Shown in pieces: positions 1 to 17,134 of a stretch of 24,000 nt of DNA (its first letter is position 1; every line of letters begins with the position of its first letter). The position numbers and the translations under genes were made by a program. Below the pieces are notes generated by a model. The model searched no databases. It saw only the letters and a program-made list of their open reading frames with translations, and had not been told where the DNA came from. This stretch comes from an uncultured Pygmaiobacter sp. (GTDB taxonomy: Bacteria > Bacillota > Clostridia > Oscillospirales > Ruminococcaceae). The DNA is taken from positions 328,105 to 352,104 of the forward strand of contig CAXXMP010000001.1 of NCBI GenBank assembly GCA_963664775.2. The letters run 5' to 3'.

Positions 1-87
1 GCGCTGGATATGTTGCGCCGTTTGCTACAGGGGCTGCCGCTGCCCGACACCCGTTGCTTTGGCCGGCACGATTTGCAGGATTTTTAA
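1..87 (+). CDS. C-terminal fragment of an unidentified CDS entering from upstream
   Basis: Frame 1 is open from the window edge (ALDMLRRLLQGLPLPDTRCFGRHDLQDF*) to TAA at 85-87, and a strong terminator hairpin follows at 134-167. It is too short to identify. Confidence 0.3.
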   Translation, partial: ALDMLRRLLQGLPLPDTRCFGRHDLQDF

Positions 88-133
88 GTGGCAGTAAAAG
101 ATGAAGTGCCCCTACATTGCAGGGTAAAAAGAG

Positions 134-167
134 GCCCGGTTTTGCAGGTGCTGCAAGCCGGGCTTTT
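134..167 (+). terminator. Intrinsic terminator after the upstream CDS
   Basis: Nested hairpin GCCCGG-t-TTGCAG-gtg-CTGCAA-g-CCGGGC followed by TTTT. Confidence 0.6.
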
Positions 168-210
168 AGTCTAGTTAAAGCGGGCGGTTTCGCCGGAGAG
201 GAACCCACTC

Positions 211-771
211 ATGAAAAAGCTGCAATACAATTCGCCGGTCATTCTCAGTTTCTTTTTGCTCTCACTGCTCTCGCTGGGGCTGGGGGCTGCCACAAACGGG
301 TGGACAACGCTGCATCTGTTTTCAGTGTACCGCGCCCCGCTCAGCGACCCGCTGTTTTATCTGCGGCTGTTTGGGCATGTGTTGGGGCACGCAAATTTTA
401 CGCATTTTTTGGGTAACATGCTGTTGTTGCTGGTCGTGGGCCCGCCGATGGAAGAAAAATACGGCAGTAACACGCTGCTGCTGGGCATGTTGCTCACCGC
501 GCTGGTGTCCGGCGTGCTGCAATGCATTCTTTTCCCCGGGGTCGTGCTGCTTGGGGCTTCCGGTTGTGTGTTTATGCTCATCATGCTCTCGTCACTTGCC
601 GGTATGCAGGCGGGGCGCGTCCCGCTGACCTTGCTTTTGGTGGCGGTGCTGTATCTCGGGCAGGAGGTTTACTCCATTTTATTTGTACAGGACAATGTCG
701 CGAATTTTATGCATCTGGTGGGCGGCGCCTGTGGTACGGTATTGGGGTTTGCGATGGCAAAAGCAAAATGA
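211..771 (+). CDS. Rhomboid-family intramembrane serine protease
   Basis: 186-aa polytopic ORF with RBS GGAGAGGAA upstream of the ATG. It has the rhomboid HxxxxHxxxN motif (GHVLGHANFTHFLGNM), the catalytic GxSG (LLGASGCVFML) and a downstream helix His (MHLVGGACG). Confidence 0.85.
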   Translation: MKKLQYNSPVILSFFLLSLLSLGLGAATNGWTTLHLFSVYRAPLSDPLFYLRLFGHVLGHANFTHFLGNMLLLLVVGPPMEEKYGSNTLLLGMLLTALVSGVLQCILFPGVVLLGASGCVFMLIMLSSLAGMQAGRVPLTLLLVAVLYLGQEVYSILFVQDNVANFMHLVGGACGTVLGFAMAKAK

Positions 772-781
772 AAAGTGAACA

Positions 782-825
782 AAACGCCCTTCTGTGCAAA
801 TTGCCGTTTGCACAGAAGGGCGTTT
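782..825. terminator. Long-stem hairpin terminator after the rhomboid gene
   Basis: Perfect 19-bp inverted repeat AAACGCCCTTCTGTGCAAA / TTTGCACAGAAGGGCGTTT with a 6-nt loop, starting 11 nt after the stop codon. The T tail is short. Confidence 0.6.
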
Positions 826-1006
826 GTCTGTAAAAAGAAATTTTAAAGTTTGTTTAAACCTTACTGGCATTAAGATGCCCGGCAAGCAAATAAAAGGCGC
901 CAGTAGCTTTCAGGTAAAACAACTGATATTGTGTGCCGCGTTTAAAACTAGGGTACGCAGCTTTTTTGTGGGTGCCAAGTTTCTCATGCTTTACGACCCT
1001 AGGCAT

Positions 1007-1057
1007 AACAACAAAAATCTCTTGTGTTTTTGCACAAGAGGTTTTTGTTGTTGTTTT
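1007..1057. terminator. Bidirectional terminator-like hairpin in the intergenic island
   Basis: 20-nt arms AACAACAAAAATCTCTTGTG / CACAAGAGGTTTTTGTTGTT (one G-U position) with loop TTTTTG. The core stem CTCTTGTG/CACAAGAG is flanked by an A-tract on one side and a T-tract on the other, so it can terminate on either strand. Confidence 0.45.
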
Positions 1058-1130
1058 GCTATGCGCAAAATGCACAAAATATAGATGCTGATGCGACAAA
1101 AAGGTTGACAGAGTGGAATGTCATTAGACA

Positions 1131-1149
1131 TGGTTTACTATAAACTACG
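1131..1149 (+). repeat. Left copy of a perfect 19-bp inverted repeat (TGGTTTACTATAAACTACG)
   Basis: Exact reverse complement of 1494-1512. An AATGTC motif lies just outside both copies. The core contains the half-palindrome GTTTA-N3-TAAAC. Confidence 0.9.
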
Positions 1150-1193
1150 CTTTTTCTATTAAAAGCCCAAGCTTCAACACGATTTCTGATTTT

Positions 1194-1217
1194 TTGACGG
1201 CGCTATCGACGGCGAAT
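1194..1217 (+). repeat. Two tandem 12-bp units TTGACGGCGCTA / TCGACGGCGAAT
   Basis: Read directly. The GACGGC cores are at 1196 and 1208, and the cluster is related to the one at 1303-1338. Confidence 0.8.
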
Positions 1218-1302
1218 GAAAATTTTTGCGCTTTTTTGAAAGTGCGGCAGATAATTTTTTGCTTTTATGTGGCTATTTTTTCATTTGAAAAAATGAAATT
1301 TT

Positions 1303-1338
1303 TTGACATTTTAATTGACGGCTGGATTGACGGCGAAT
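1303..1338 (+). repeat. Three tandem 12-bp units TTGACATTTTAA / TTGACGGCTGGA / TTGACGGCGAAT
   Basis: Read directly. The GACGGC cores at 1317 and 1329 are each exactly 121 bp downstream of the cores at 1196 and 1208. Confidence 0.8.
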
Positions 1339-1422
1339 ATGGAACAGTTTATATGAATTAAGGCAATTAATTTTTAACAAAATTGCCAAAACAGTGTAAA
1401 AAGAATATCAATTTTGTATTGC

Positions 1423-1451
1423 TTGACAGTTTGTTGTGACTGATATATAAT
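1423..1451 (+). promoter_or_regulatory. Consensus sigma-A/sigma-70 promoter directed at the MCP gene
   Basis: TTGACA (1423-1428), a 17-bp spacer and TATAAT (1446-1451), with an A/T-rich UP-like tract upstream. The predicted TSS near 1458 gives a ~165-nt leader. Confidence 0.75.
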
Positions 1452-1493
1452 CGAAAATGTCGAAATATACAAATTTGGGTGGCAATTAGGTGT

Positions 1494-1512
1494 CGTAGTT
1501 TATAGTAAACCA
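1494..1512 (-). repeat. Right copy of the perfect 19-bp inverted repeat
   Basis: The plus strand reads CGTAGTTTATAGTAAACCA, the reverse complement of 1131-1149. It lies 344 bp from the left copy, between the consensus promoter and the MCP start codon. Confidence 0.9.
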
Positions 1513-1625
1513 CGACATTAGTTGAGTCTATATAATTTCTTAAGCATAGCACGCAGGTGACAATAAGTTATAGTATTATGTATTGCATTTGAACAACCGG
1601 ATTGCAAAGAAAAGGATGGCTGAAA

Positions 1626-3365
1626 ATGAAAAAGTGGCTTGAAAACACAAGGATTTCCCACAAATTGCGCTTTGGCTTTTTATCAATCACATTTCTTGGT
1701 GTTCTCATTGGTATTGTTGGCGTCATTGGGATGATGTTGCTATTGAACAATGAAAAAACGACCTATAACAATACCACTCTGGGCTTACAGTATGCATCGG
1801 ATGCCGAGTCTGCATTTGTGCGCGTGCGCAACAAGACCAAAGATTTGTATATTCGATACAGCCAATATGGCAGCAAAGACCTTGACAGTTATCAGGCGGA
1901 AATTGAAAAACAGTTGATGATTGTGGATGAGTCGCTTTCTTCTTATACCGGTACGATTTCAGACGAGCAGGATCAGGCGAATTTTGATAAAGTAGACACT
2001 CTATTTAAAGAGTATAAATCCGGCGTTGACACTATTCTTGCGGCCGTTAACGCGGGTAATACGGCGACATCAGTTCTTGCCAGCATGAACAATATAACCG
2101 ATATGGCAAATAAAACCGATGCCGCATTCGACACCTTGTCAGCGCACATCACGGAGGTATCTGAACAGCAAATGAGCAACGACCAAATAATGGCATGGGC
2201 CTTAATGGGCATTGTTGCCGGGGTTGTGGTGTTGGCTTTTGTAGCAGCTGTTTTGCTGGGGAACCGCATTTCGGATATGATTGCGCAACCGATAGAAGTA
2301 TTTGCCGCATTTGCAAAAATACTGGCGGTTGGCGATGTGGATGTTGGCAAAGTGACAACAGAAAAAGATAGGTCGCTCGCAAAGCGCAAGGACGAGATTG
2401 GCACGCTTGCTTCTTCGTTTGATAGCGTGATAGAAAGCACAACCCTGATGGCGCAACAGACCAGCCGCGTTGCAAGTGGAGATTTGACCGTAGCGGTAAC
2501 GGTACGCTCACAGGAGGATGTGCTTGGCCAGTCGTTACAACAACTGGTTGAAAAAATGCACGACATGGTGGCGGAGATCGCCGCTTCGGCAAACCAGGTG
2601 GATGCGGGTGCAAAGCAGGTGGCAGATTCCAGTGTGGCATTGTCGCAGGGCGCTACCGAACAAGCAAGCTCGGTAGAAGAACTGACGGCATCGCTGGAAG
2701 AAGTGACTGCGCATACCACCCAAAACGCCGAAAACGCGCGGCGCACCGATGAACTGGCGCGCGGGATACAAAAGGATGCACAGACAAGCAGCGACCAGAT
2801 GAAGCAAATGCTTAAAGCGATGGTCGAGATTAACGGTGCTTCCGACAATATTGGCAAAATCATCAAAGTCATTGAGGACATTGCCTTCCAAACGAATATC
2901 CTTGCGCTGAATGCCGCGGTAGAAGCAGCACGCGCGGGGGAACACGGCAAGGGGTTTGCGGTGGTGGCAGAAGAGGTGCGCAATCTTGCGGGGCAGTCTG
3001 CAAAGGCCGCAAACGAGACCTCTCAACTGATTGAAAGCTCGATGCAGAAAGTGGATGACGGCACAAAGATCGCAGATGACACGGCAGAGTCATTGTACAA
3101 GATCGTCAGTGGTATTGGCCAGGCATCCGAGTTGATTGATGCAATCGCCACCGCTACCAATGAACAGGCGGCGGCGCTTGAGCAGATCAACCAGGGCGTT
3201 ATGCAAATTTCAGATGTAGTGCAAAACACCGCAGCGGCAGCAGAGGAGTCTGCGGCGGCAAGTGAAGAACTGTCTGGTCAGGCAGACAGCTTGAAGCTGG
3301 GGGTCAGTGCTTTTACACTGCAACAAAAGGACCTGCAGCCCGAGCAACAGATTGAAAGCGCTTAA
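1626..3365 (+). CDS. Methyl-accepting chemotaxis protein (two TM helices, sensor domain, HAMP, MA signalling domain)
   Basis: The ORF track gives 1602-3365. I prefer the ATG at 1626 (MKKWLENT), which is preceded by AAAGGA. TM1 is [22 protein letters not shown], a ~170-aa extracytoplasmic domain follows, and TM2 is [23 protein letters not shown]. The highly conserved MCP hairpin core is [37 protein letters not shown]. Confidence 0.93.
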
Positions 3366-3415
3366 AATAGGCACGGAATAGAAGTGGCAAATTCTACTAT
3401 TCCGTAGTTTCAGCA

Positions 3416-3447
3416 AAACAGGGGGCACCCGGCGCCCGCTGTTTTTA
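3416..3447 (+). terminator. Intrinsic terminator between the MCP and HD-GYP genes
   Basis: GC-rich hairpin AACAGGGGGC...GCCCGCTGTT followed by TTTTT. A second hairpin lies upstream (ACGGAATAGAAG/CTACTATTCCGT, 3373-3405). Confidence 0.6.
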
Positions 3448-3462
3448 TAGGAGAGTCACAGC

Positions 3463-4104
3463 ATGCAAGCTGATTTTTGCACCGAGATTGATCTGCCGCA
3501 GGAAATTCGCGGCTTGCCCCAAAACCTGATTTGCCATATGGTCAATGTCAGTATTTATGTGCGAAAAATGTCGCAGTTGATGGCAGAGTGTCAACATTTT
3601 TCTGCTGACCCGCAGGCAACCCAATTTCCGCTTTTTGGGCGAGCGGCTTTTTACCATGACATCGGTAAAATATGGGTACCACGTGAGATTTTAGTAAAAC
3701 CGGCGCGGCTAACAGAGGAAGAAATGGCTGAAATGCGCAGGCACCCCATTTATGGCCTGCGACTTTTGGCGGCGTACCCTAAAGAAGAGGTACCTGGCCT
3801 GCCGCAAGAGCTGTTGCCGCTGATCCACGATGCGGTGGGTTATCACCACGAATGGTGGGATGGCAGCGGGTACCCCTTTGGCTTATGTGGGGAAGAGGCA
3901 CCGCTGATTGCCCGTGTGACGGCAATTTGCGATGCGTACGATGCGATTACCGGTACACGGGCTTACCGTACAGGCCAGCCGCACGAGGTAGCCTGCGCAG
4001 AGCTGAAACGGTGTTCCGGCACCCAGTTTGACCCGCGTCTGGTCGACATGTTTCTTGCACATGAGGCCGAGTTTACCGGCCTTGGCAGGCGTGTTTGCAC
4101 CTAG
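3463..4104 (+). CDS. Stand-alone HD-GYP domain protein (putative c-di-GMP phosphodiesterase)
   Basis: 213 aa with RBS AGGAGA. It has the HD motif (FYHDIGKIWVP) and the GYP motif (HHEWWDGSGYPFGL). There is no receiver or sensor domain N-terminal to the HD domain. Confidence 0.88.
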   Translation: MQADFCTEIDLPQEIRGLPQNLICHMVNVSIYVRKMSQLMAECQHFSADPQATQFPLFGRAAFYHDIGKIWVPREILVKPARLTEEEMAEMRRHPIYGLRLLAAYPKEEVPGLPQELLPLIHDAVGYHHEWWDGSGYPFGLCGEEAPLIARVTAICDAYDAITGTRAYRTGQPHEVACAELKRCSGTQFDPRLVDMFLAHEAEFTGLGRRVCT

Positions 4105-4171
4105 ATGCAAAAGGAATGAAAGAAAGCTATTACAAATGGCCGCAAAGTATTGAAAGAATAACCGCTAAAAC

Positions 4172-4212
4172 AAACTACGCGCAGCCCCTTTTTTTGGGGG
4201 TGCGCGTAGTTT
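4172..4212. terminator. Bidirectional terminator between convergent HD-GYP and eda genes
   Basis: AAACTACGCGCAGCCCC-TTTTTTT-GGGGGTGCGCGTAGTTT forms a 17-bp stem with one mismatch, flanked by an A-tract and a T-tract. Confidence 0.7.
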
Positions 4213-4247
4213 TATAAGGCCGGTAATTATAGATATGCCATGCTCTA

Positions 4248-4883
4248 TTAGCCGCGAATAGCGTTGAGCAACAGCTTGCTGCGGCTGGCGGCTTCCGGCA
4301 GGTGGTCAAGGTCGATGCCCTTGGTCAAATAGCTGCCAATGCCAACGGCATAGGCACCGTTTTCAAACCAGCTGCCAATGTTGGAATAGTCGACACCGTC
4401 GGTTGGCATGAACTCCAAAAACGGCAACGGGGCCTGTACAGCACGGATAAACTCCGGGTTGATTGAGCAACCCGGGAACAGCTTGATCAAATCGCTGCCT
4501 GCAAGATAACTTTGATACGCTTCGGTTGCGGTGGCGGCGCCCATGCTGCACAGCATATCCAGTTGTTTGCAGGCGGCACCGACCTCCGGTAAAATGCAGG
4601 GGCTGGTCACAAAATCCGCACCGCTTTCCCGCGCAGCCTTTGCCTGGCCGGCCGTCAGCACGGTGCCCGCCCCAACCAGTGTTGTCTCGCCAAATTCGGT
4701 TTTTAATTCGTGAATCAGGCGGGGGGCATCTTTTACGGTAAAAGTGACTTCCAGCGCACCAATGCCAGCAGATGCAACGGTATGGGCAACCGCTTTTGCG
4801 GTTTCAAAATCATCAAAACGAATCAAAGCCACACACCTGCCTTTCAATGCGGCCATGGCCTCCTGCTTTGTCAGCGTTTTCAT
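4248..4883 (-). CDS. eda: KDPG / 4-hydroxy-2-oxoglutarate aldolase (Eda family)
   Basis: 211 aa with RBS GAGGAA. It has typical Eda-family motifs (EVTF..., GAGTVLT, VTSP, IKLFPG) and the expected length. Confidence 0.85.
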   Translation of the reverse strand: MKTLTKQEAMAALKGRCVALIRFDDFETAKAVAHTVASAGIGALEVTFTVKDAPRLIHELKTEFGETTLVGAGTVLTAGQAKAARESGADFVTSPCILPEVGAACKQLDMLCSMGAATATEAYQSYLAGSDLIKLFPGCSINPEFIRAVQAPLPFLEFMPTDGVDYSNIGSWFENGAYAVGIGSYLTKGIDLDHLPEAASRSKLLLNAIRG

Positions 4884-5143
4884 TTAGATTCCTCGCTTTC
4901 CGGCGAAAGGGCAATGAAGCGATTCATCCCCTTCGCAAATCATGATAATGTTGCTATTATACACCCAAAAAGCGATAAGAAAAAGTGAAAAACTGTTTTT
5001 TTTACACAAAAAACAGGCGTTTTTGACCTTTTATTGACTCATTTGTGCAGACTTTTTGTCTGCTGTGTAAACAAGCCTTTTGAAGCAGAACAAAAAGTGT
5101 TATACTAAAACAAATCCCTGCCCAGGCAGAAAGGAATTTACAA

Positions 5144-6925
5144 ATGCGTGTAAAAAGAACACTGGACCGCAGTAAATTAATCGCGGCGGCAATGGGCCAG
5201 TTGCCGTGCGACCTGACGATAGAAAACATCCGTTTTGTCAATGTGATGACGGGGGAAATTTACCCCGCCGAAGTTGATGTGCTGGATGGTGTAGTGGTGC
5301 GGGTGCGCGCGAAAGGCGAAAAGGCCCGCCAGATAAGCCGCCAGAGTTATGACGGCGCAAACCGGTACCTTGCGCCCGGTTGTATCGACATTCATATGCA
5401 TGTGGAAAGCACCATGTTGACGCCTGAAAATTTTGGCAAGGCGGCTATTTTGTGCGGCACGACCAGCGTATTTGTAGACCCGCACGAGATCGCCAATGTT
5501 TTAGGCATCGACGGCGTGCAGTTCATGGTCGATAACGCCAAGGCTTCGCCGGTGCGGCAGTTTAATTTGGCGCCCTCGTGCTTGCCGTCGGTACCGGGTG
5601 CAGAGGGCAATGGGGCCGAGTTTGGCCCGAAAGAAATTGCACAGCTGCTCGACACCGATGGGGTGTACGGCATTGCTGAAGTGATGGACTTTTACAACGT
5701 CGTGCACGATTCGGCTAAAATGCATGGCATTTTAAAAGAGGGGCTGGACCGCGATGTGCTGATTCAGGGCCATGCGCCGAAGCTTAGCCCAGCGGAGATC
5801 GCCGCCTATGCGCTTGCCGGCCCGACAGATAACCATAGCCTGCGCGGCAGTGAAGAAGTGGCAGAAAACCTGCATGTTGGGCTATATGCGCATTTACAGG
5901 AAAGCTCACTTTCTACCAACACCATGCCGCAACTGGTCGCCGGGCTGAAAGGCATGCGCTACACCGACCACGTTTGCCTGTGCAACGACGATGTACACGC
6001 CAAAGACCTGCTGGAGACCGGGCATGTCAACCGGCTGATCAAGGCCGTGCTGCGCCAAGGGGTAGACCCGATGGATGCTTTGCGCTGGGCAACTTACAAT
6101 TCAGCCCGCTCGGCCGGGGTAGAGGACATCGGTGCCATTGCGCCGGGCTTTGTGGCCGATATGCAGTTGTTGGATGAACTGGATGGGCGCGACCCTTACG
6201 CGGTGTTTTTTGAGGGCAAGCTGGTTGCCGAGGCGGGGCACCTTGTACAGGCCGCCCCCGCGGCACCACTGCCGGCAACGGTGCTGGGGGGCACCGTGCG
6301 TGTGCAAGGCCTGCACACTGCCACAGACCTTGCCTTACCCGTACCGGCGTGGGCCAAAGACCATGTAAAAGTGGCCGTGCTGGATTATGACACCCCCACG
6401 GCGCGCAGTGATTTGTTTTATGAAACGCTGCCGGTGAAAAACGGCTTTGTCGACCTTAGCGGCCGTGACGATCTGAGCTATATTGCGGTGTGGAACCGGC
6501 ACGGTAGCGGGGAGCATACGGTCTCGGTGTGCCGTAATTTGTATTTAAAAGAGGGCGCCATGGCGACGACAGTCTCGCACGACTGCCACAACCTGACGCT
6601 TTGTTATAAAACCCCACAGGATGGATATGCGGCGGCCCATGCCCTTATTGATTGTGGCGGCGGGTTTTGCACCGTGCGGCGCGGCGCGGTGACCGGCTTG
6701 TTAAAATTGCCGGTTGCGGGGCTGATGAGCCTGCTGCCCTGCACCGAGTTAGTGCCTGCAATTTCAGCGCAAGAGCAGGCGACCGACGAGATTTTTGAAC
6801 GGCCGGGGTACATGATGAAATTATCACTCGTTTCACTCGCCTGTACGCAAAATGCAGTCATCACCGACAAAGGGCTGTTTGATGGCCGTACCCAGCAGTT
6901 TTACCAGCAGTTTATTCAAAAATAA
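5144..6925 (+). CDS. ade: Adenine deaminase (amidohydrolase superfamily)
   Basis: 593 aa with RBS AAAGGAA. The N-terminal metal-binding motif PGCIDIHMHVESTMLTPENF matches the adenine deaminase pattern (xxDxHxHIESSM), and the length is typical of Ade. Confidence 0.85.
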   Translation: MRVKRTLDRSKLIAAAMGQLPCDLTIENIRFVNVMTGEIYPAEVDVLDGVVVRVRAKGEKARQISRQSYDGANRYLAPGCIDIHMHVESTMLTPENFGKAAILCGTTSVFVDPHEIANVLGIDGVQFMVDNAKASPVRQFNLAPSCLPSVPGAEGNGAEFGPKEIAQLLDTDGVYGIAEVMDFYNVVHDSAKMHGILKEGLDRDVLIQGHAPKLSPAEIAAYALAGPTDNHSLRGSEEVAENLHVGLYAHLQESSLSTNTMPQLVAGLKGMRYTDHVCLCNDDVHAKDLLETGHVNRLIKAVLRQGVDPMDALRWATYNSARSAGVEDIGAIAPGFVADMQLLDELDGRDPYAVFFEGKLVAEAGHLVQAAPAAPLPATVLGGTVRVQGLHTATDLALPVPAWAKDHVKVAVLDYDTPTARSDLFYETLPVKNGFVDLSGRDDLSYIAVWNRHGSGEHTVSVCRNLYLKEGAMATTVSHDCHNLTLCYKTPQDGYAAAHALIDCGGGFCTVRRGAVTGLLKLPVAGLMSLLPCTELVPAISAQEQATDEIFERPGYMMKLSLVSLACTQNAVITDKGLFDGRTQQFYQQFIQK

Positions 6926-9029: not shown

Positions 9030-9111
9030 TTCTGGGCTTTAGACCGCATTTCGCGAAGCGAAAGGCAACAAACCACCCGCTAAGCGGGTGAGTAGCCAAA
9101 GCTTAAGCAAA

Positions 9112-9181
9112 AAGGCATCACCTTTCTGATAAAATGAAGAGTGTTCAAGCCTTTAAAAAATCAGAAGAAAGGTGATGCCTT
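9112..9181 (+). promoter_or_regulatory. Stem-loop sequestering the tnpA RBS and start codon
   Basis: AAGGCATCACCTTT (9112-9125) pairs perfectly with AAAGGTGATGCCTT (9168-9181). The paired region covers the SD GAAAGGTG and the ATG at 9175. The same translational-occlusion architecture is known for Salmonella IS200. Confidence 0.65.
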
Positions 9182-9636
9182 ATGGCAGAAAGTTTAGCAC
9201 ACAGGCACACAGCAAGTGGGTATGCAAGTATCATGTGGTGTTCAGCCCAAAGTACCGGAGAAAAGCAATCTACAATGAATTGAGAGCAGACATCCAACAA
9301 TATATTAGAGATTTGTGCAAGTGGAAAGGGATAGAGATTGTAGAAGGGCACATGATGCCGGATCATGTGCATCTGCTGTTGTCGATACCGCCGAAGTATT
9401 GCGTTTCAAGTTTCATGGGGTATTTAAAAGGGAAATCGGCAACGATGATATTTGAAAAGCATGCAAATTTAAAATATAAATTTGGGAACAAGCACTTTTG
9501 GGCAACGGGGTATTACGTAAGTACAGTAGGGCTAAACGAAGCGACAATAGCAAAATATATCAGAGAACAAGAAAAGCAAGATATGCTGGAAGATAGGCTG
9601 ACAACAAAAGAGTACGAAGACCCTTTTAAGGGTTAA
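9175..9636 (+). CDS. tnpA: IS200/IS605-family Y1 transposase TnpA
   Basis: There is strong by-eye similarity to IS200 TnpA: WVCKYHVVFSPKYRRK, the HUH motif PDHVHLLLSIPPK, FMGYLKGKSA, and the catalytic-Tyr region FWATGYYVSTVG. I chose the ATG at 9175 rather than the GTG at 9172. Confidence 0.93.
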   Translation: MPYGRKFSTQAHSKWVCKYHVVFSPKYRRKAIYNELRADIQQYIRDLCKWKGIEIVEGHMMPDHVHLLLSIPPKYCVSSFMGYLKGKSATMIFEKHANLKYKFGNKHFWATGYYVSTVGLNEATIAKYIREQEKQDMLEDRLTTKEYEDPFKG

Positions 9637-14729: not shown

Positions 14730-15551
14730 TTACGCGGCATCCGGCAGGGCAGTTGCCTCCGGTGGGGGGGCTTGCGTTGGGGCAGGCTGCGGGGTTTCAC
14801 CGGGGTAGAAATCGACCCGCTGTGCCAGTTCGGCCGCCGCTTCATGTAGGGCAAAACTGCCGGTCAAATTAAGAGAAGCCGATGCAGTAGTGTCATTATT
14901 TTCATCAATTGTGCTCCAGCTAAAATACAGATTGTCTGGTTTTAAGCCGCTGGTAAGCACCTTATCCCGCAAGTCGGCGCAGGTTTTAGCAAAGCTTGCG
15001 GCATCTGCAAACGGGCCACGCAGATCAATAGAAATATCCACAGTGTCCCCGCCCGACAGTTCACCCAGTGTTACCTCTCTGGGGCGGCGCCAGTCGGCAA
15101 GGGTGACAGTGGAATACGAGTCGTAAACCACCTCGCTGTCTTTTAAAACAGAATAGACCTTTTCTTCCAGCTCTTTTGAAAGCCGCTGCTCGGCGTTGTG
15201 CTTTTCCGGGCCAAAGTAGGTAACAAAATAGGGGATGGTGGAAAGGCCCAAAGCGCTGAACACCAGCACAATGCATAAAAAGAACGACAGAAAATCATAC
15301 TTAATCGGGACATTGCTGCCGGCAAAATTGCTGGCCACGACCTCAATACCGAGAAAAATTAAAATCAGCGGGCAAAGCTTAAAGGCGATGGTCAAATCGA
15401 AAGACGGCCAAAGCAGGGAAGCACCAATGGCAAGGCCGGTCAAAATTAAGGCAAGCCCAGCGGTTAAGGTGCCAACCCGGCGGGGGTGGGGCGGCTTGGG
15501 TTGCGGTGTGCCGGGGGTTTGCTGCGGCGCTTGCTGCGTGGTATCTGCCAT
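14730..15551 (-). CDS. Membrane protein with Pro/Gln-rich termini and a C-terminal extracytoplasmic domain (unknown function)
   Basis: 273 aa with RBS GGGGGAGA. It has a disordered PQ-rich N-terminus, about 4 TM helices, a ~150-aa soluble domain and a Pro-rich tail. It is the last gene of the ECF operon. Confidence 0.7.
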   Translation of the reverse strand: MADTTQQAPQQTPGTPQPKPPHPRRVGTLTAGLALILTGLAIGASLLWPSFDLTIAFKLCPLILIFLGIEVVASNFAGSNVPIKYDFLSFFLCIVLVFSALGLSTIPYFVTYFGPEKHNAEQRLSKELEEKVYSVLKDSEVVYDSYSTVTLADWRRPREVTLGELSGGDTVDISIDLRGPFADAASFAKTCADLRDKVLTSGLKPDNLYFSWSTIDENNDTTASASLNLTGSFALHEAAAELAQRVDFYPGETPQPAPTQAPPPEATALPDAA

Positions 15552-15552
15552 C

Positions 15553-16107
15553 TTAATTCTCCCCCTTAAACTCTACAAAATCGTCCTGCTGTGCCTTTTT
15601 GCGCCCGCCGCGCATCAGCCGTATACCAAACAGAACCAGCAAAATGGCGACTGCAAGGGTGGGCAGGTTGCTGGCAATGCGCCACAGCCAGTTCAGGTCG
15701 TACGGCAGTGCATTCAGCAAATTGGCAAACAGCGAAAGGAAGAAGCTGTTGTACAGGATATAAACACCGATGACGATCAGCCCAATGCCCAGTGCAAGGT
15801 GATAGCGTTTGGCAACCTCCTGCGCGCCTACACGGTTACGCAGTTCTGGTGGCACAATGAAGTCATCCGGTTTGGCCGCGCATTCCTCCGGTGTCATATT
15901 GCGAATGGCGAAAGCGTCAAAAAAGGCAAAGAACCAGATGACTGGCAGTAGAATGCTAAAAAACCACAAATCGAGGAAACCGGCTACGCCAAGCACGGTC
16001 ACGAACGCGGTCATCAGTGAGGTGCCCCGTTTGGTATAGCCCAGATACATTTGCCCCGCACCGGGCCAGCAGGCAAAGATGAAAGTGAGGAAGGAACTCT
16101 TTTTCAT
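15553..16107 (-). CDS. Membrane protein with a TM2-like N-terminal motif (unknown function)
   Basis: 184 aa. Its start overlaps the anti-sigma stop (ATGA). The motif PGAGQMYLGYTKRG resembles TM2-domain proteins, and there are about 4 TM helices. Confidence 0.65.
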   Translation of the reverse strand: MKKSSFLTFIFACWPGAGQMYLGYTKRGTSLMTAFVTVLGVAGFLDLWFFSILLPVIWFFAFFDAFAIRNMTPEECAAKPDDFIVPPELRNRVGAQEVAKRYHLALGIGLIVIGVYILYNSFFLSLFANLLNALPYDLNWLWRIASNLPTLAVAILLVLFGIRLMRGGRKKAQQDDFVEFKGEN

Positions 16108-16622
16108 TTGTTGGTCTCTCCTTTTTGTGTGAATGTAGCAAAGAAGCTTTCAACAGCATCCGAAATTTGCATATTCAAGGTCGTGGGTTTTTGTCCGTCA
16201 TCCGCAAGGTATTTGCTTTTCATTTCTTCTTTCGCTGAAACAATGCGGGTTTGTTCTTGCTTTAGCAGGTAACTGCTGCGGTCAAAATCACCCTGTTGCA
16301 GCGGGATACTGACGGCAGAAAATACGCCGGTCAGCCACAGGCCCAGTGCAAGGCAGGCGGCAAGGCCTACTTTAAGCCCGCGGTTAAAGAAAATAGTGTT
16401 ACGTCGTTTTTGAATGCGCTGCATTACCGGTTCGGTCACCGGGTGTTCGGGTTGTAGCAGCACATCATCGGTCAACAGCGCGGCATACCGGCCGCAGCAG
16501 CTGTCACAAAACGAAAGGTGCTCGGCTGCCTCAAGGCTTTGCAGCTCGTCGAGATTTCCGGCAATCAGCGAGTCTAACCCTTCTTCTGTGAAGTGGCCCG
16601 TTTCATTGTCAAACAGATTCAC
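16104..16622 (-). CDS. Anti-sigma factor (zf-HC2 type, single-pass membrane)
   Basis: 172 aa with a GTG start overlapping the sigma stop (GTGA) and preceded by AAAGGAGGA. It has an N-terminal HxxxCxxC zinc motif (EHLSFCDSCCGRY) and one TM helix (VGLAACLALGLWLTGVF). Confidence 0.8.
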   Translation of the reverse strand: MNLFDNETGHFTEEGLDSLIAGNLDELQSLEAAEHLSFCDSCCGRYAALLTDDVLLQPEHPVTEPVMQRIQKRRNTIFFNRGLKVGLAACLALGLWLTGVFSAVSIPLQQGDFDRSSYLLKQEQTRIVSAKEEMKSKYLADDGQKPTTLNMQISDAVESFFATFTQKGETNK

Positions 16623-17134
16623 GAAAATCCTCCTTTCGGTGTCAGCTGCTTTTGCAGCAGCTGTTTAGCGCGGTAAAGCTGGGTGTGTACCGTTTTAGAT
16701 GGCCTCCCCAGCTGCTTTGCAATTTCCTCCACCGGTTTCTGTTCTAAAAAATACAAAACAGAAACCTGTAAATAGGGTTCGCGCAGGCTGCGAATTACAT
16801 CGGCAATCTCACCGGACATCACGGTGTCAACCACAATGTCCTCCGGTGGTGGGGTGGCGTATTGGCTGTACTGCACGTCCTCGTCATCATCCGTTAAGTT
16901 CACGCGTCGGTTGTAAGCACTTTTTAAATAATCCTTGGCTTTGTTGGTGGCAATGCGGCATAGCCAGGGCTTTGCGGTTTCGGGCGTACAACTGTCGCGG
17001 TGAAGATAGGCGGAAAGAAAGGTGTCTTGCGTGAGATCCTCGGCAGTCTGTGGGTTTTTGGTCATCTGATAACACACAGTATATACCAGCCTTTGATATT
17101 GCTGTACCAGTTCTTCAAATGCTGTGTCCCGCAC
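16619..17134 (-). CDS. ECF-type RNA polymerase sigma-70 factor
   Basis: 171 aa. Region 2 is DLTQDTFLSAY...WLCRIATNKAKDYL and region 4 contains the HTH (QKPVEEIAKQLGRPSKTVHTQLYRAKQLL). The start is a GTG as given by the track. Confidence 0.88.
   Translation of the reverse strand: MRDTAFEELVQQYQRLVYTVCYQMTKNPQTAEDLTQDTFLSAYLHRDSCTPETAKPWLCRIATNKAKDYLKSAYNRRVNLTDDDEDVQYSQYATPPPEDIVVDTVMSGEIADVIRSLREPYLQVSVLYFLEQKPVEEIAKQLGRPSKTVHTQLYRAKQLLQKQLTPKGGFS

Follow-up and report, generated by a model that had tools for sequence, protein, structure and literature searches.

The window analysed here, a 24-kb stretch of DNA from an uncultured Pygmaiobacter sp., very probably contains a site-specific DNA-inversion switch (inverton) that controls the genes that encode a methyl-accepting chemotaxis protein (MCP) and an HD-GYP protein by the direction of a promoter. 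Inverted repeats bracket a short intergenic segment which occurs in both orientations in nature, with the breakpoints inside the repeats, and the promoter predicted within the segment would face the adjacent gene in one orientation only. The locus is a new case of an already known type of switch. An invertible promoter had been suggested at this position in the initial annotation, and this reading is supported by a related locus in which the segment is inverted (L002), by two contigs that contain both junctions (L026 and L027) and by four contigs that are broken at the base where the two orientations diverge. The elements of the switch are:

1129-1149 (+ strand), left recombination site of 21 bp, CATGGTTTA-CTA-TAAACTACG, which includes the 19-bp left repeat at 1131-1149.
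1150-1493 (no strand assigned), invertible interior, non-coding, 344 bp; it lies on the opposite strand relative to both flanks in L002 and has the MCP flank on both sides in L026 and L027.
1423-1451 (+ strand), predicted sigma-70-type promoter TTGACA-17-TATAAT with 12/12 consensus positions; it faces the MCP gene in the window (ON), with a predicted transcription start site (TSS) near 1458.
1494-1514 (+ strand), right recombination site of 21 bp, CGTAGTTTA-TAG-TAAACCACG, which includes the 19-bp right repeat at 1494-1512.

The perfect 19-bp inverted repeat was confirmed at the coordinates given before, with TGGTTTACTATAAACTACG at 1131-1149, its exact reverse complement at 1494-1512 and 344 bp between the two. 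With up to three mismatches allowed, the 19-mer had just these two matches in the window while none was expected from 100 shuffles, and when the window was resampled 200 times with a first-order Markov model, no perfect inverted repeat with arms 30-1000 bp apart was longer than 17 bp. Repeat and promoter are real, non-random features of this DNA. Both repeats can be extended to a dyad-symmetric site of 21 bp with 9-bp arms and an asymmetric 3-bp centre; the site consensus is CRTRGTTTA-CTA-TAAACYAYG, and the arms of all lineages fit CRTRGTTTA and vary at positions 2 and 4 only. The segment is also more AT-rich than the flanking genes, as had been noted before (G+C content of 0.30-0.34 versus 0.50-0.58), but the AT-richness is not restricted to it and covers the whole intergenic region at ~830-1625.

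Inversion of the segment was seen between as well as within natural populations. Exact scans with the 19-mer covered 185,579 species genomes (one per species) and 241 million metagenome records. Since there was no exact-protein record for the MCP or the rhomboid protein of the window, orthologous loci were reached via MCP homologues, through which 16 further contigs were fetched. The scan of the species genomes gave two related loci. L001 is from a metagenome-assembled genome (MAG) of Pygmaiobacter (family Oscillospiraceae) and has the orientation of the window; its contig ends ~110 bp inside the segment. L002 is located on the MAG contig JAEWRN010000005 (119.6 kb, labelled Bacillota bacterium) and represents a sister lineage of the window. 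There, ctttttctattaaaa... adjoins the MCP-side repeat, whereas in the window that sequence adjoins the rhomboid-side repeat, and BLAST placed window positions 1-1149 and 1494-6132 on one strand and 1131-1510 on the other. Three of the other loci (L012, on contig k141_59316 of ENA ERZ27269008, L013 and L015) are from the same species as L002 and have the interior in the orientation of the window. Their identity to L002 is 98.5% over the MCP flank and 95-97% over the rhomboid flank, and the 378-bp span bounded by the repeats is 97% identical, on the opposite strand. The opposite orientation, sought at orthologous loci, was thus found and, since the interior of L002 is inverted relative to L012, L013 and L015, one species occurs in both states with the breakpoints inside the repeats. 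In this natural OFF copy, the 12/12 promoter faces away from the MCP gene and toward a terminator-like hairpin ~150 bp off, as had been expected for a flip, and the copy has no promoter-like site that faces the MCP gene.

Both orientations were also found in single samples. A spurious small open reading frame (ORF) called inside the segment served as a handle to retrieve short metagenome contigs of two further lineages, L026 (ENA ERZ28614842, 512 bp), which is 97% identical to the window, and L027 (JGI 3300001865, 960 bp), which is 100% identical to the lineage of L016 (Ga0183095_10037). Both contigs have the layout reverse-complemented MCP flank, site, interior, site, MCP flank. Such a hairpin path needs, on the MCP side, the OFF junction (MCP flank joined to the interior end 'ctttttct') and the ON junction (promoter end joined to the MCP flank), and therefore these samples held both orientations. 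Four more contigs (L014, L020, L022 and L025) begin inside or at the inner edge of the right site. L014 begins at CGTAGTTTATAG, the inner repeat edge in its lineage, and L020 and L022 begin at GTTTATAG, the base after the lineage-specific A/G difference of the inner arm; these three starts are exactly where the ON and OFF junctions would diverge in their own lineages. L025 begins at GTTTATAG as well, a lineage of which no full-length locus is available for a prediction. Counted over different contigs, 12 are ON (the window, L006/L016, L009, L010, L012, L013, L015, L017, L018, L024 and the partial L001 and L021), one is OFF (L002), two are hairpins with both junctions and four are broken at the site.

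It is hardly conceivable that the repeats are a palindromic operator pair for a DNA-binding regulator and that what looks like inversion arose in assembly. An internal palindrome makes each site operator-like, and L026 and L027, the hairpin contigs, are chimeras produced by assembly, but both new junctions are assembled in the 119.6-kb contig of L002, and OFF junctions recur across independent ENA, JGI and NCBI samples and across lineages, always at the same base positions. Further, assemblers commonly use k-mers longer than the 19-bp repeat; if this was the case here, a break would imply two alternative continuations in the reads, and breaks as well as chimeras would need reads from a real alternative junction. 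Labels of the type k127/k141 are indeed carried by the source-contig name of L002 and by the names of L010 and L012; we read them as MEGAHIT k-mer sizes, so that single long k-mers would cross the 19-bp repeat. A rearrangement of DNA was observed, and the sites are not merely a static operator pair.

Differences between the arms delimit where the strands are exchanged. In the species of L012 and L002, the outer arms are unlike each other (CATAG... versus CGTGG...) and each is kept with its own flank in both orientations, so the outer arm of the left site remains on the rhomboid flank after the segment has inverted. In the L016 lineage, it is the inner arms that are unlike each other (CGTA versus CGTG), and this A/G difference moves with the interior in L027. 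Since the outer-arm markers stay with the flanks and the inner-arm marker moves with the interior, the exchange takes place within a 13-bp core, GTTTACTATAAAC. The centre reads CCA at the left and TGG at the right site of the distant L024, a coordinated change of both sites. Site-specific recombination requires dyad symmetry, a confined exchange and a centre that changes in both sites together; taken with the short length of the repeat, these features argue against accidental homologous recombination.

The latter would take the form of a real but rare, unprogrammed recombination between short repeats, for example RecA-mediated, that became fixed in some strains as a population polymorphism. 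We regard this as very improbable. It would agree with the finding that no recombinase was detected nearby, that most full-length contigs are ON and that the samples are mixed communities, but repeats of 19-21 bp are very short for homologous recombination, OFF junctions occur in three separate lineages with contig breaks in several more samples, both sites have the dyad symmetry to be expected if a recombinase binds as a dimer, their centres changed together in L024, and few parts of the intergenic region are as conserved as the sites.

Terminal inverted repeats are also a property of mobile elements, and the 382-bp unit could in principle be a miniature inverted-repeat transposable element (MITE) or the remnant of an insertion sequence (IS) that brackets a promoter by chance. 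An IS200 transposase is encoded elsewhere in the window, and in the window, in L010 and in the L016 lineage a 6-bp direct repeat, CATTAG (1122-1127 and 1516-1521), is found 1 nt outside each 21-bp site. The L012/L002 lineage, L001 and L024 do not have this direct repeat, which, therefore, probably is chance and not a target-site duplication. Moreover, the exact repeat was found solely at the orthologous locus in the species genomes and metagenome records; the other matches (L003-L005, L007 and L008) are unrelated, isolated and have no inverted partner, and they were treated as chance. Plasmid and phage collections gave no match, the position of the unit is unchanged even where the MCP protein has diverged to 83% identity (L024), and the rearrangement seen is an inversion and not presence versus absence. 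With a single-copy unit and no dispersed exact copies in the genome, metagenome, plasmid and phage collections, an origin as MITE or IS remnant is extremely unlikely.

The promoter within the segment, called textbook-like in the initial annotation, is composed of TTGACA at 1423-1428, a 17-bp spacer and TATAAT at 1446-1451 and lies 42 bp inside the right site. It is the sole 12/12 match within 700-1900 when both strands are scanned. By the same consensus scan, no comparable promoter is found from the right repeat to the start of the MCP gene, again as proposed before, and there is no second, oppositely directed promoter on the minus strand of the segment. Promoter activity and the TSS near 1458 are predicted from the match to the consensus. 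For an estimate of conservation, six lineages were aligned after flipping L002; the hexamers are invariant and the spacer is nearly invariant across them. The parts of the region, with the identity to the distant L024 and the number of positions invariant in the six lineages, are:

1129-1149, left site, 85.7% identity to L024, 18/21 positions invariant.
1150-1188 and 1223-1285, interior spacers, 50.8-53.8% identity to L024, 14/39 and 24/63 positions invariant.
1189-1222, block around repeat 1, 79.4% identity to L024, 24/34 positions invariant.
1286-1362, block around repeat 2, 81.8% identity to L024, 60/77 positions invariant.
1395-1472, promoter block, 88.5% identity to L024, 63/78 positions invariant.
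1494-1514, right site, 90.5% identity to L024, 18/21 positions invariant.
1515-1608, leader, 53.2% identity to L024, 33/94 positions invariant.

Conservation is thus concentrated in the two sites, in the block with the promoter and in two blocks of direct repeats, while the spacers and the leader drift. The direct-repeat blocks within the interior are:

1194-1217 (+ strand), internal direct-repeat block 1, TTGACGGCGCTATCGACGGCGAAT, with two T[TC]GACGGC units 12 bp apart.
1315-1338 (+ strand), internal direct-repeat block 2, TTGACGGCTGGATTGACGGCGAAT, in the same orientation and 121 bp past block 1.

Both are 24 bp long (TTGACGGC-N4-T[CT]GACGGCGAAT), have a GAAT after the two units and are absent elsewhere in the window. 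Block 1 stands out as a conserved island with 79% identity to L024 versus 50-54% in the adjacent spacer, and block 2 is inside the conserved stretch 1286-1362. The small ORF inside the segment (55 amino acids in the window, 63 in L016) was rejected as a gene, as it contains stop codons in L010, L012, L002 and L024. Since this ORF is broken by stops in four lineages and the blocks are in different reading frames, the blocks are DNA-level elements; they could be activator sites of the promoter or accessory sites of the recombination, by analogy to the IHF and Lrp sites in fimS. A near-invariant sequence, TCGAAAATGTCGAAAT, is located at the predicted transcription start (1450-1466). It includes TGTCGAA at 1458-1464, which we take to match the Spo0A-box heptamer; the corresponding sequence in L010 and L026 is TGTTGAA.

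The segment could also invert and exert its effect not by promoter direction but by an RNA-level feature (termination, leader structure) or by a regulator site. Indeed, the flg and cwpV switches of C. difficile act after transcription initiation (PMC9286219), and conserved repeat blocks are present inside the segment. In addition, the 21-bp site followed by CTTTTTCT (L002 4607-4637, window 1129-1160) has a terminator-like score, with a 9-bp stem and a 3-nt loop, the stem being weak and AT-rich. These points have to be weighed against the lineage-invariant 12/12 promoter 42 bp inside the right site and the finding that, whichever way the segment lies, the MCP gene has no other promoter-like site upstream. 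Transcripts from upstream are unlikely to read through, since two terminator-like hairpins separate the rhomboid gene from the switch, and the leader does not match an Rfam family: nothing was found at gathering score, and the sub-threshold matches are generic hairpins. A riboswitch or another known RNA in the leader was rejected on this ground, and control at the RNA level or by a regulator site is considered very unlikely. The genes and hairpins around the switch are:

211-771, rhomboid protease gene, upstream of the switch.
782-825, terminator-like hairpin of the rhomboid gene.
1007-1052 (no strand assigned), two-way hairpin, terminator-like on both strands, between the rhomboid gene and the left site.
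1626-3365 (+ strand), MCP gene, 579 amino acids, Pfam 4HB_MCP_1, HAMP and MCPsignal; first gene downstream of the switch.
3463-4104 (+ strand), gene of a stand-alone HD-GYP protein, 213 amino acids, Pfam HD_5.
4172-4212 (no strand assigned), hairpin with T run, a 17-nt inverted repeat with 94% complementarity, 3' of the HD-GYP gene.

The MCP orthologues likewise have 579 amino acids, and a ribosome binding site, AAAGGATGG, is found 6 nt 5' of the ATG of the MCP gene. The HD_5 product has a true HD-GYP domain, since both the HDIGK and the HHEWWDGSGYP motifs are present. Its gene follows the MCP gene at every orthologous locus and, with no terminator-like site on the + strand of the 97-bp gap, is probably co-transcribed with it. 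The hairpin at 4172-4212 likely is the end of the transcription unit under control of the switch; the next gene encodes an aldolase (4248-4883) and is on the opposite strand. The stem ends of this hairpin (AAACTACG / CGTAGTTT) are identical to 8 bases of the arm of the recombination site, which probably is a coincidence. On the other side, the hairpin at 1007-1052 is, as stated before, terminator-like on both strands, and we propose that it would serve as insulator for the OFF state. In all lineages, the interval from the rhomboid gene to the left site contains a two-way hairpin; its position is unchanged in the sister lineages, and its sequence differs in L024. Between the two upstream hairpins, the ~180-bp stretch 826-1006 is present in the window, in L010 and in the L016 lineage, has only a weak counterpart in the L012 lineage and is missing from L001 and L024.

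From these data, a model for the switch can be drawn. A recombinase encoded elsewhere in the genome would recombine the inverted 21-bp sites at 1129-1149 and 1494-1514, and strand exchange inside the 13-bp core would flip the 344-bp interior. In the ON state, transcription from ~1458 would pass the right site, include the MCP and HD-GYP genes and end at the hairpin 4172-4212. In the OFF state, the promoter would fire into the two-way terminator at 1007-1052, and the operon would have no recognisable promoter and be silent. The outcome would be a phase-variable chemoreceptor along with a phosphodiesterase-type enzyme for cyclic di-GMP (c-di-GMP), and the population would split into cells with and cells without both.

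The initial annotation had already stated that the window does not encode the recombinase, and no tyrosine or serine recombinase was found among the 30 ORFs scanned across the 24 kb; the scan gave an IS200 Y1 transposase (9172-9636) as its sole enzyme that rearranges DNA. Serine invertase systems of the Hin/Gin/Mpi type have an even-length site with a central 2-bp crossover and often an invertase gene beside it and an enhancer; here, the 3-bp centre CTA puts the dyad axis on a base pair, an invertase gene is not found next to the switch, and the repeat blocks could be accessory sites, although nothing ties them to Fis. Since the centre has an odd length, which argues weakly against a serine-type crossover with a 2-bp stagger, a tyrosine recombinase with an overlap of ~7 bp would be weakly favoured. 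The published pattern for sites of the switches controlled by RecV, AWAGTWNCCNTTW-N6-WAANGGNWACTWT, has 13-bp arms and a 6-bp spacer (PMC12282940). It has no match in the window at up to 3 mismatches, and a RecV-type site was rejected; the sites described here have 9-bp arms (CRTRGTTTA) and a 3-bp centre.

Several points weigh against a programmed promoter switch. Neither the 24 kb of the window nor, in L012, L016 and L024, the 10 kb to either side of the switch contain a recombinase gene. The two conserved repeat blocks have no role in the inverton model, and promoter strength, TSS and co-transcription of the HD-GYP gene are derived entirely from consensus scans. Since 12 switch-spanning contigs are ON and one is OFF, switching may be rare and, since the samples are communities, the ON and OFF forms could be co-existing strains rather than one clone; the mixture within samples was deduced from assembled contigs.

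The IS200/IS605-type Y1 transposase gene at 9172-9636 (+ strand) has an imperfect hairpin repeat just upstream (9095-9127 / 9166-9198). It looks like an insertion specific to the lineage of the window, since L012 and L016 do not have it between the genes of a YcxB-like protein and an acyl-ACP thioesterase. Farther downstream, at 14730-17134 on the - strand, a gene encoding a sigma factor of the extracytoplasmic function (ECF) type (16619-17134) is followed by three ORFs without significant Pfam match (one has a sub-threshold match), which may be an anti-sigma or membrane module.

A site similar to those described here was found at a second MCP gene. L028 (GCA_032091395.1, DAMDCV010000096.1) has at 34-54 a 21-bp dyad site, CGTAGTTTC-AAC-TAAACTGCG, 255 bp upstream of a gene whose MCP is 57% identical, in another genomic setting; this may be a related switch of a different genus. 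The site is located just after a TATAAT and 33 bp from the contig end and, since just one site is visible, L028 is a lead and not evidence. A more far-reaching idea is that an undescribed family of recombinases and sites (arms CRYRGTTT ... AAACYRYG) phase-varies chemoreceptors in several genera of the Oscillospiraceae, and that the repeat blocks, as sites of an accessory or arm type, render switching regulated or directional instead of purely random; we consider this doubtful and put it forward as a tentative extension.

In sum, the data describe a well-supported natural phase-variation switch in uncultured Oscillospiraceae, relatives of Pygmaiobacter. One inversion event would determine the state of a chemoreceptor together with that of an HD-GYP enzyme which degrades c-di-GMP, and random ON/OFF variation from cell to cell would be linked to decisions on motility and chemotaxis, which has been worked out so far only for Clostridioides difficile. 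The delimited site, with its 13-bp exchange core and defined arms, can be used to seek the recombinase and other switches under its control. Further, public assemblies alone can expose an inversion, by opposite orientations, hairpin contigs and breaks at the repeat.

Among known systems, fimS of E. coli (FimB/FimE) is likewise an invertible promoter element of ~300 bp with short inverted repeats. Binding sites for accessory proteins (IHF, Lrp) are located inside that element, a parallel to the two conserved internal repeat blocks found here. The systems differ in that the recombinase genes are directly beside fimS, whereas none is nearby here, in the length of the repeats (9 bp versus 19-21 bp) and in the genes controlled, which are fimbriae genes in the case of fimS and genes of signalling proteins here. 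In the capsule-promoter invertons of Bacteroides, promoter cassettes within inverted repeats are flipped by a master recombinase encoded elsewhere, the serine invertase Mpi; these belong to another phylum and have other target genes. A trans-acting recombinase, as proposed for the switch described here, also flips the short intergenic RecV switches of C. difficile (flg, cwpV, cmrRST). The cmr switch carries a promoter, as does the segment here, while flg and cwpV differ from the proposed promoter switch in their mode of action.

The closest parallel is found in the Clostridia, where inversion sites most often adjoin signalling and chemotaxis genes (PMC5903667). The c-di-GMP phosphodiesterase gene pdcB of C. 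difficile is governed by an invertible promoter: as in the window, a short intergenic promoter segment between inverted repeats (Cdi2) drives an adjacent c-di-GMP-degrading gene in one orientation, and the recombinase is not encoded adjacent to the switch and was not identified in that study (PMC9286219), just as none is encoded nearby here. Unlike pdcB, whose product is a PAS-GGDEF-EAL protein, the enzyme encoded here is a stand-alone HD-GYP protein after an MCP gene, the promoter has a perfect sigma-70 consensus, whereas the internal TSS of pdcB has none and a second promoter is present upstream of that switch (PMC9286219), the published RecV motif is absent, and the host is an uncultured lineage of the Oscillospiraceae. 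Sekulovic et al. 2018 (PMC5903667) also place MCP genes and genes of HD-type phosphodiesterases beside invertible sites of Clostridia, for example in Anaerotignum propionicum (CPRO_12170, MCP) and Desulfitobacterium dehalogenans (HD-type phosphodiesterase). Those sites were detected by read signatures in isolates and are compared here by their description, not by sequence. A report on the locus described here was not found in the literature. What it adds to the known cases is a precisely delimited site, conserved internal repeats and a possible related site at the distant MCP gene of L028.

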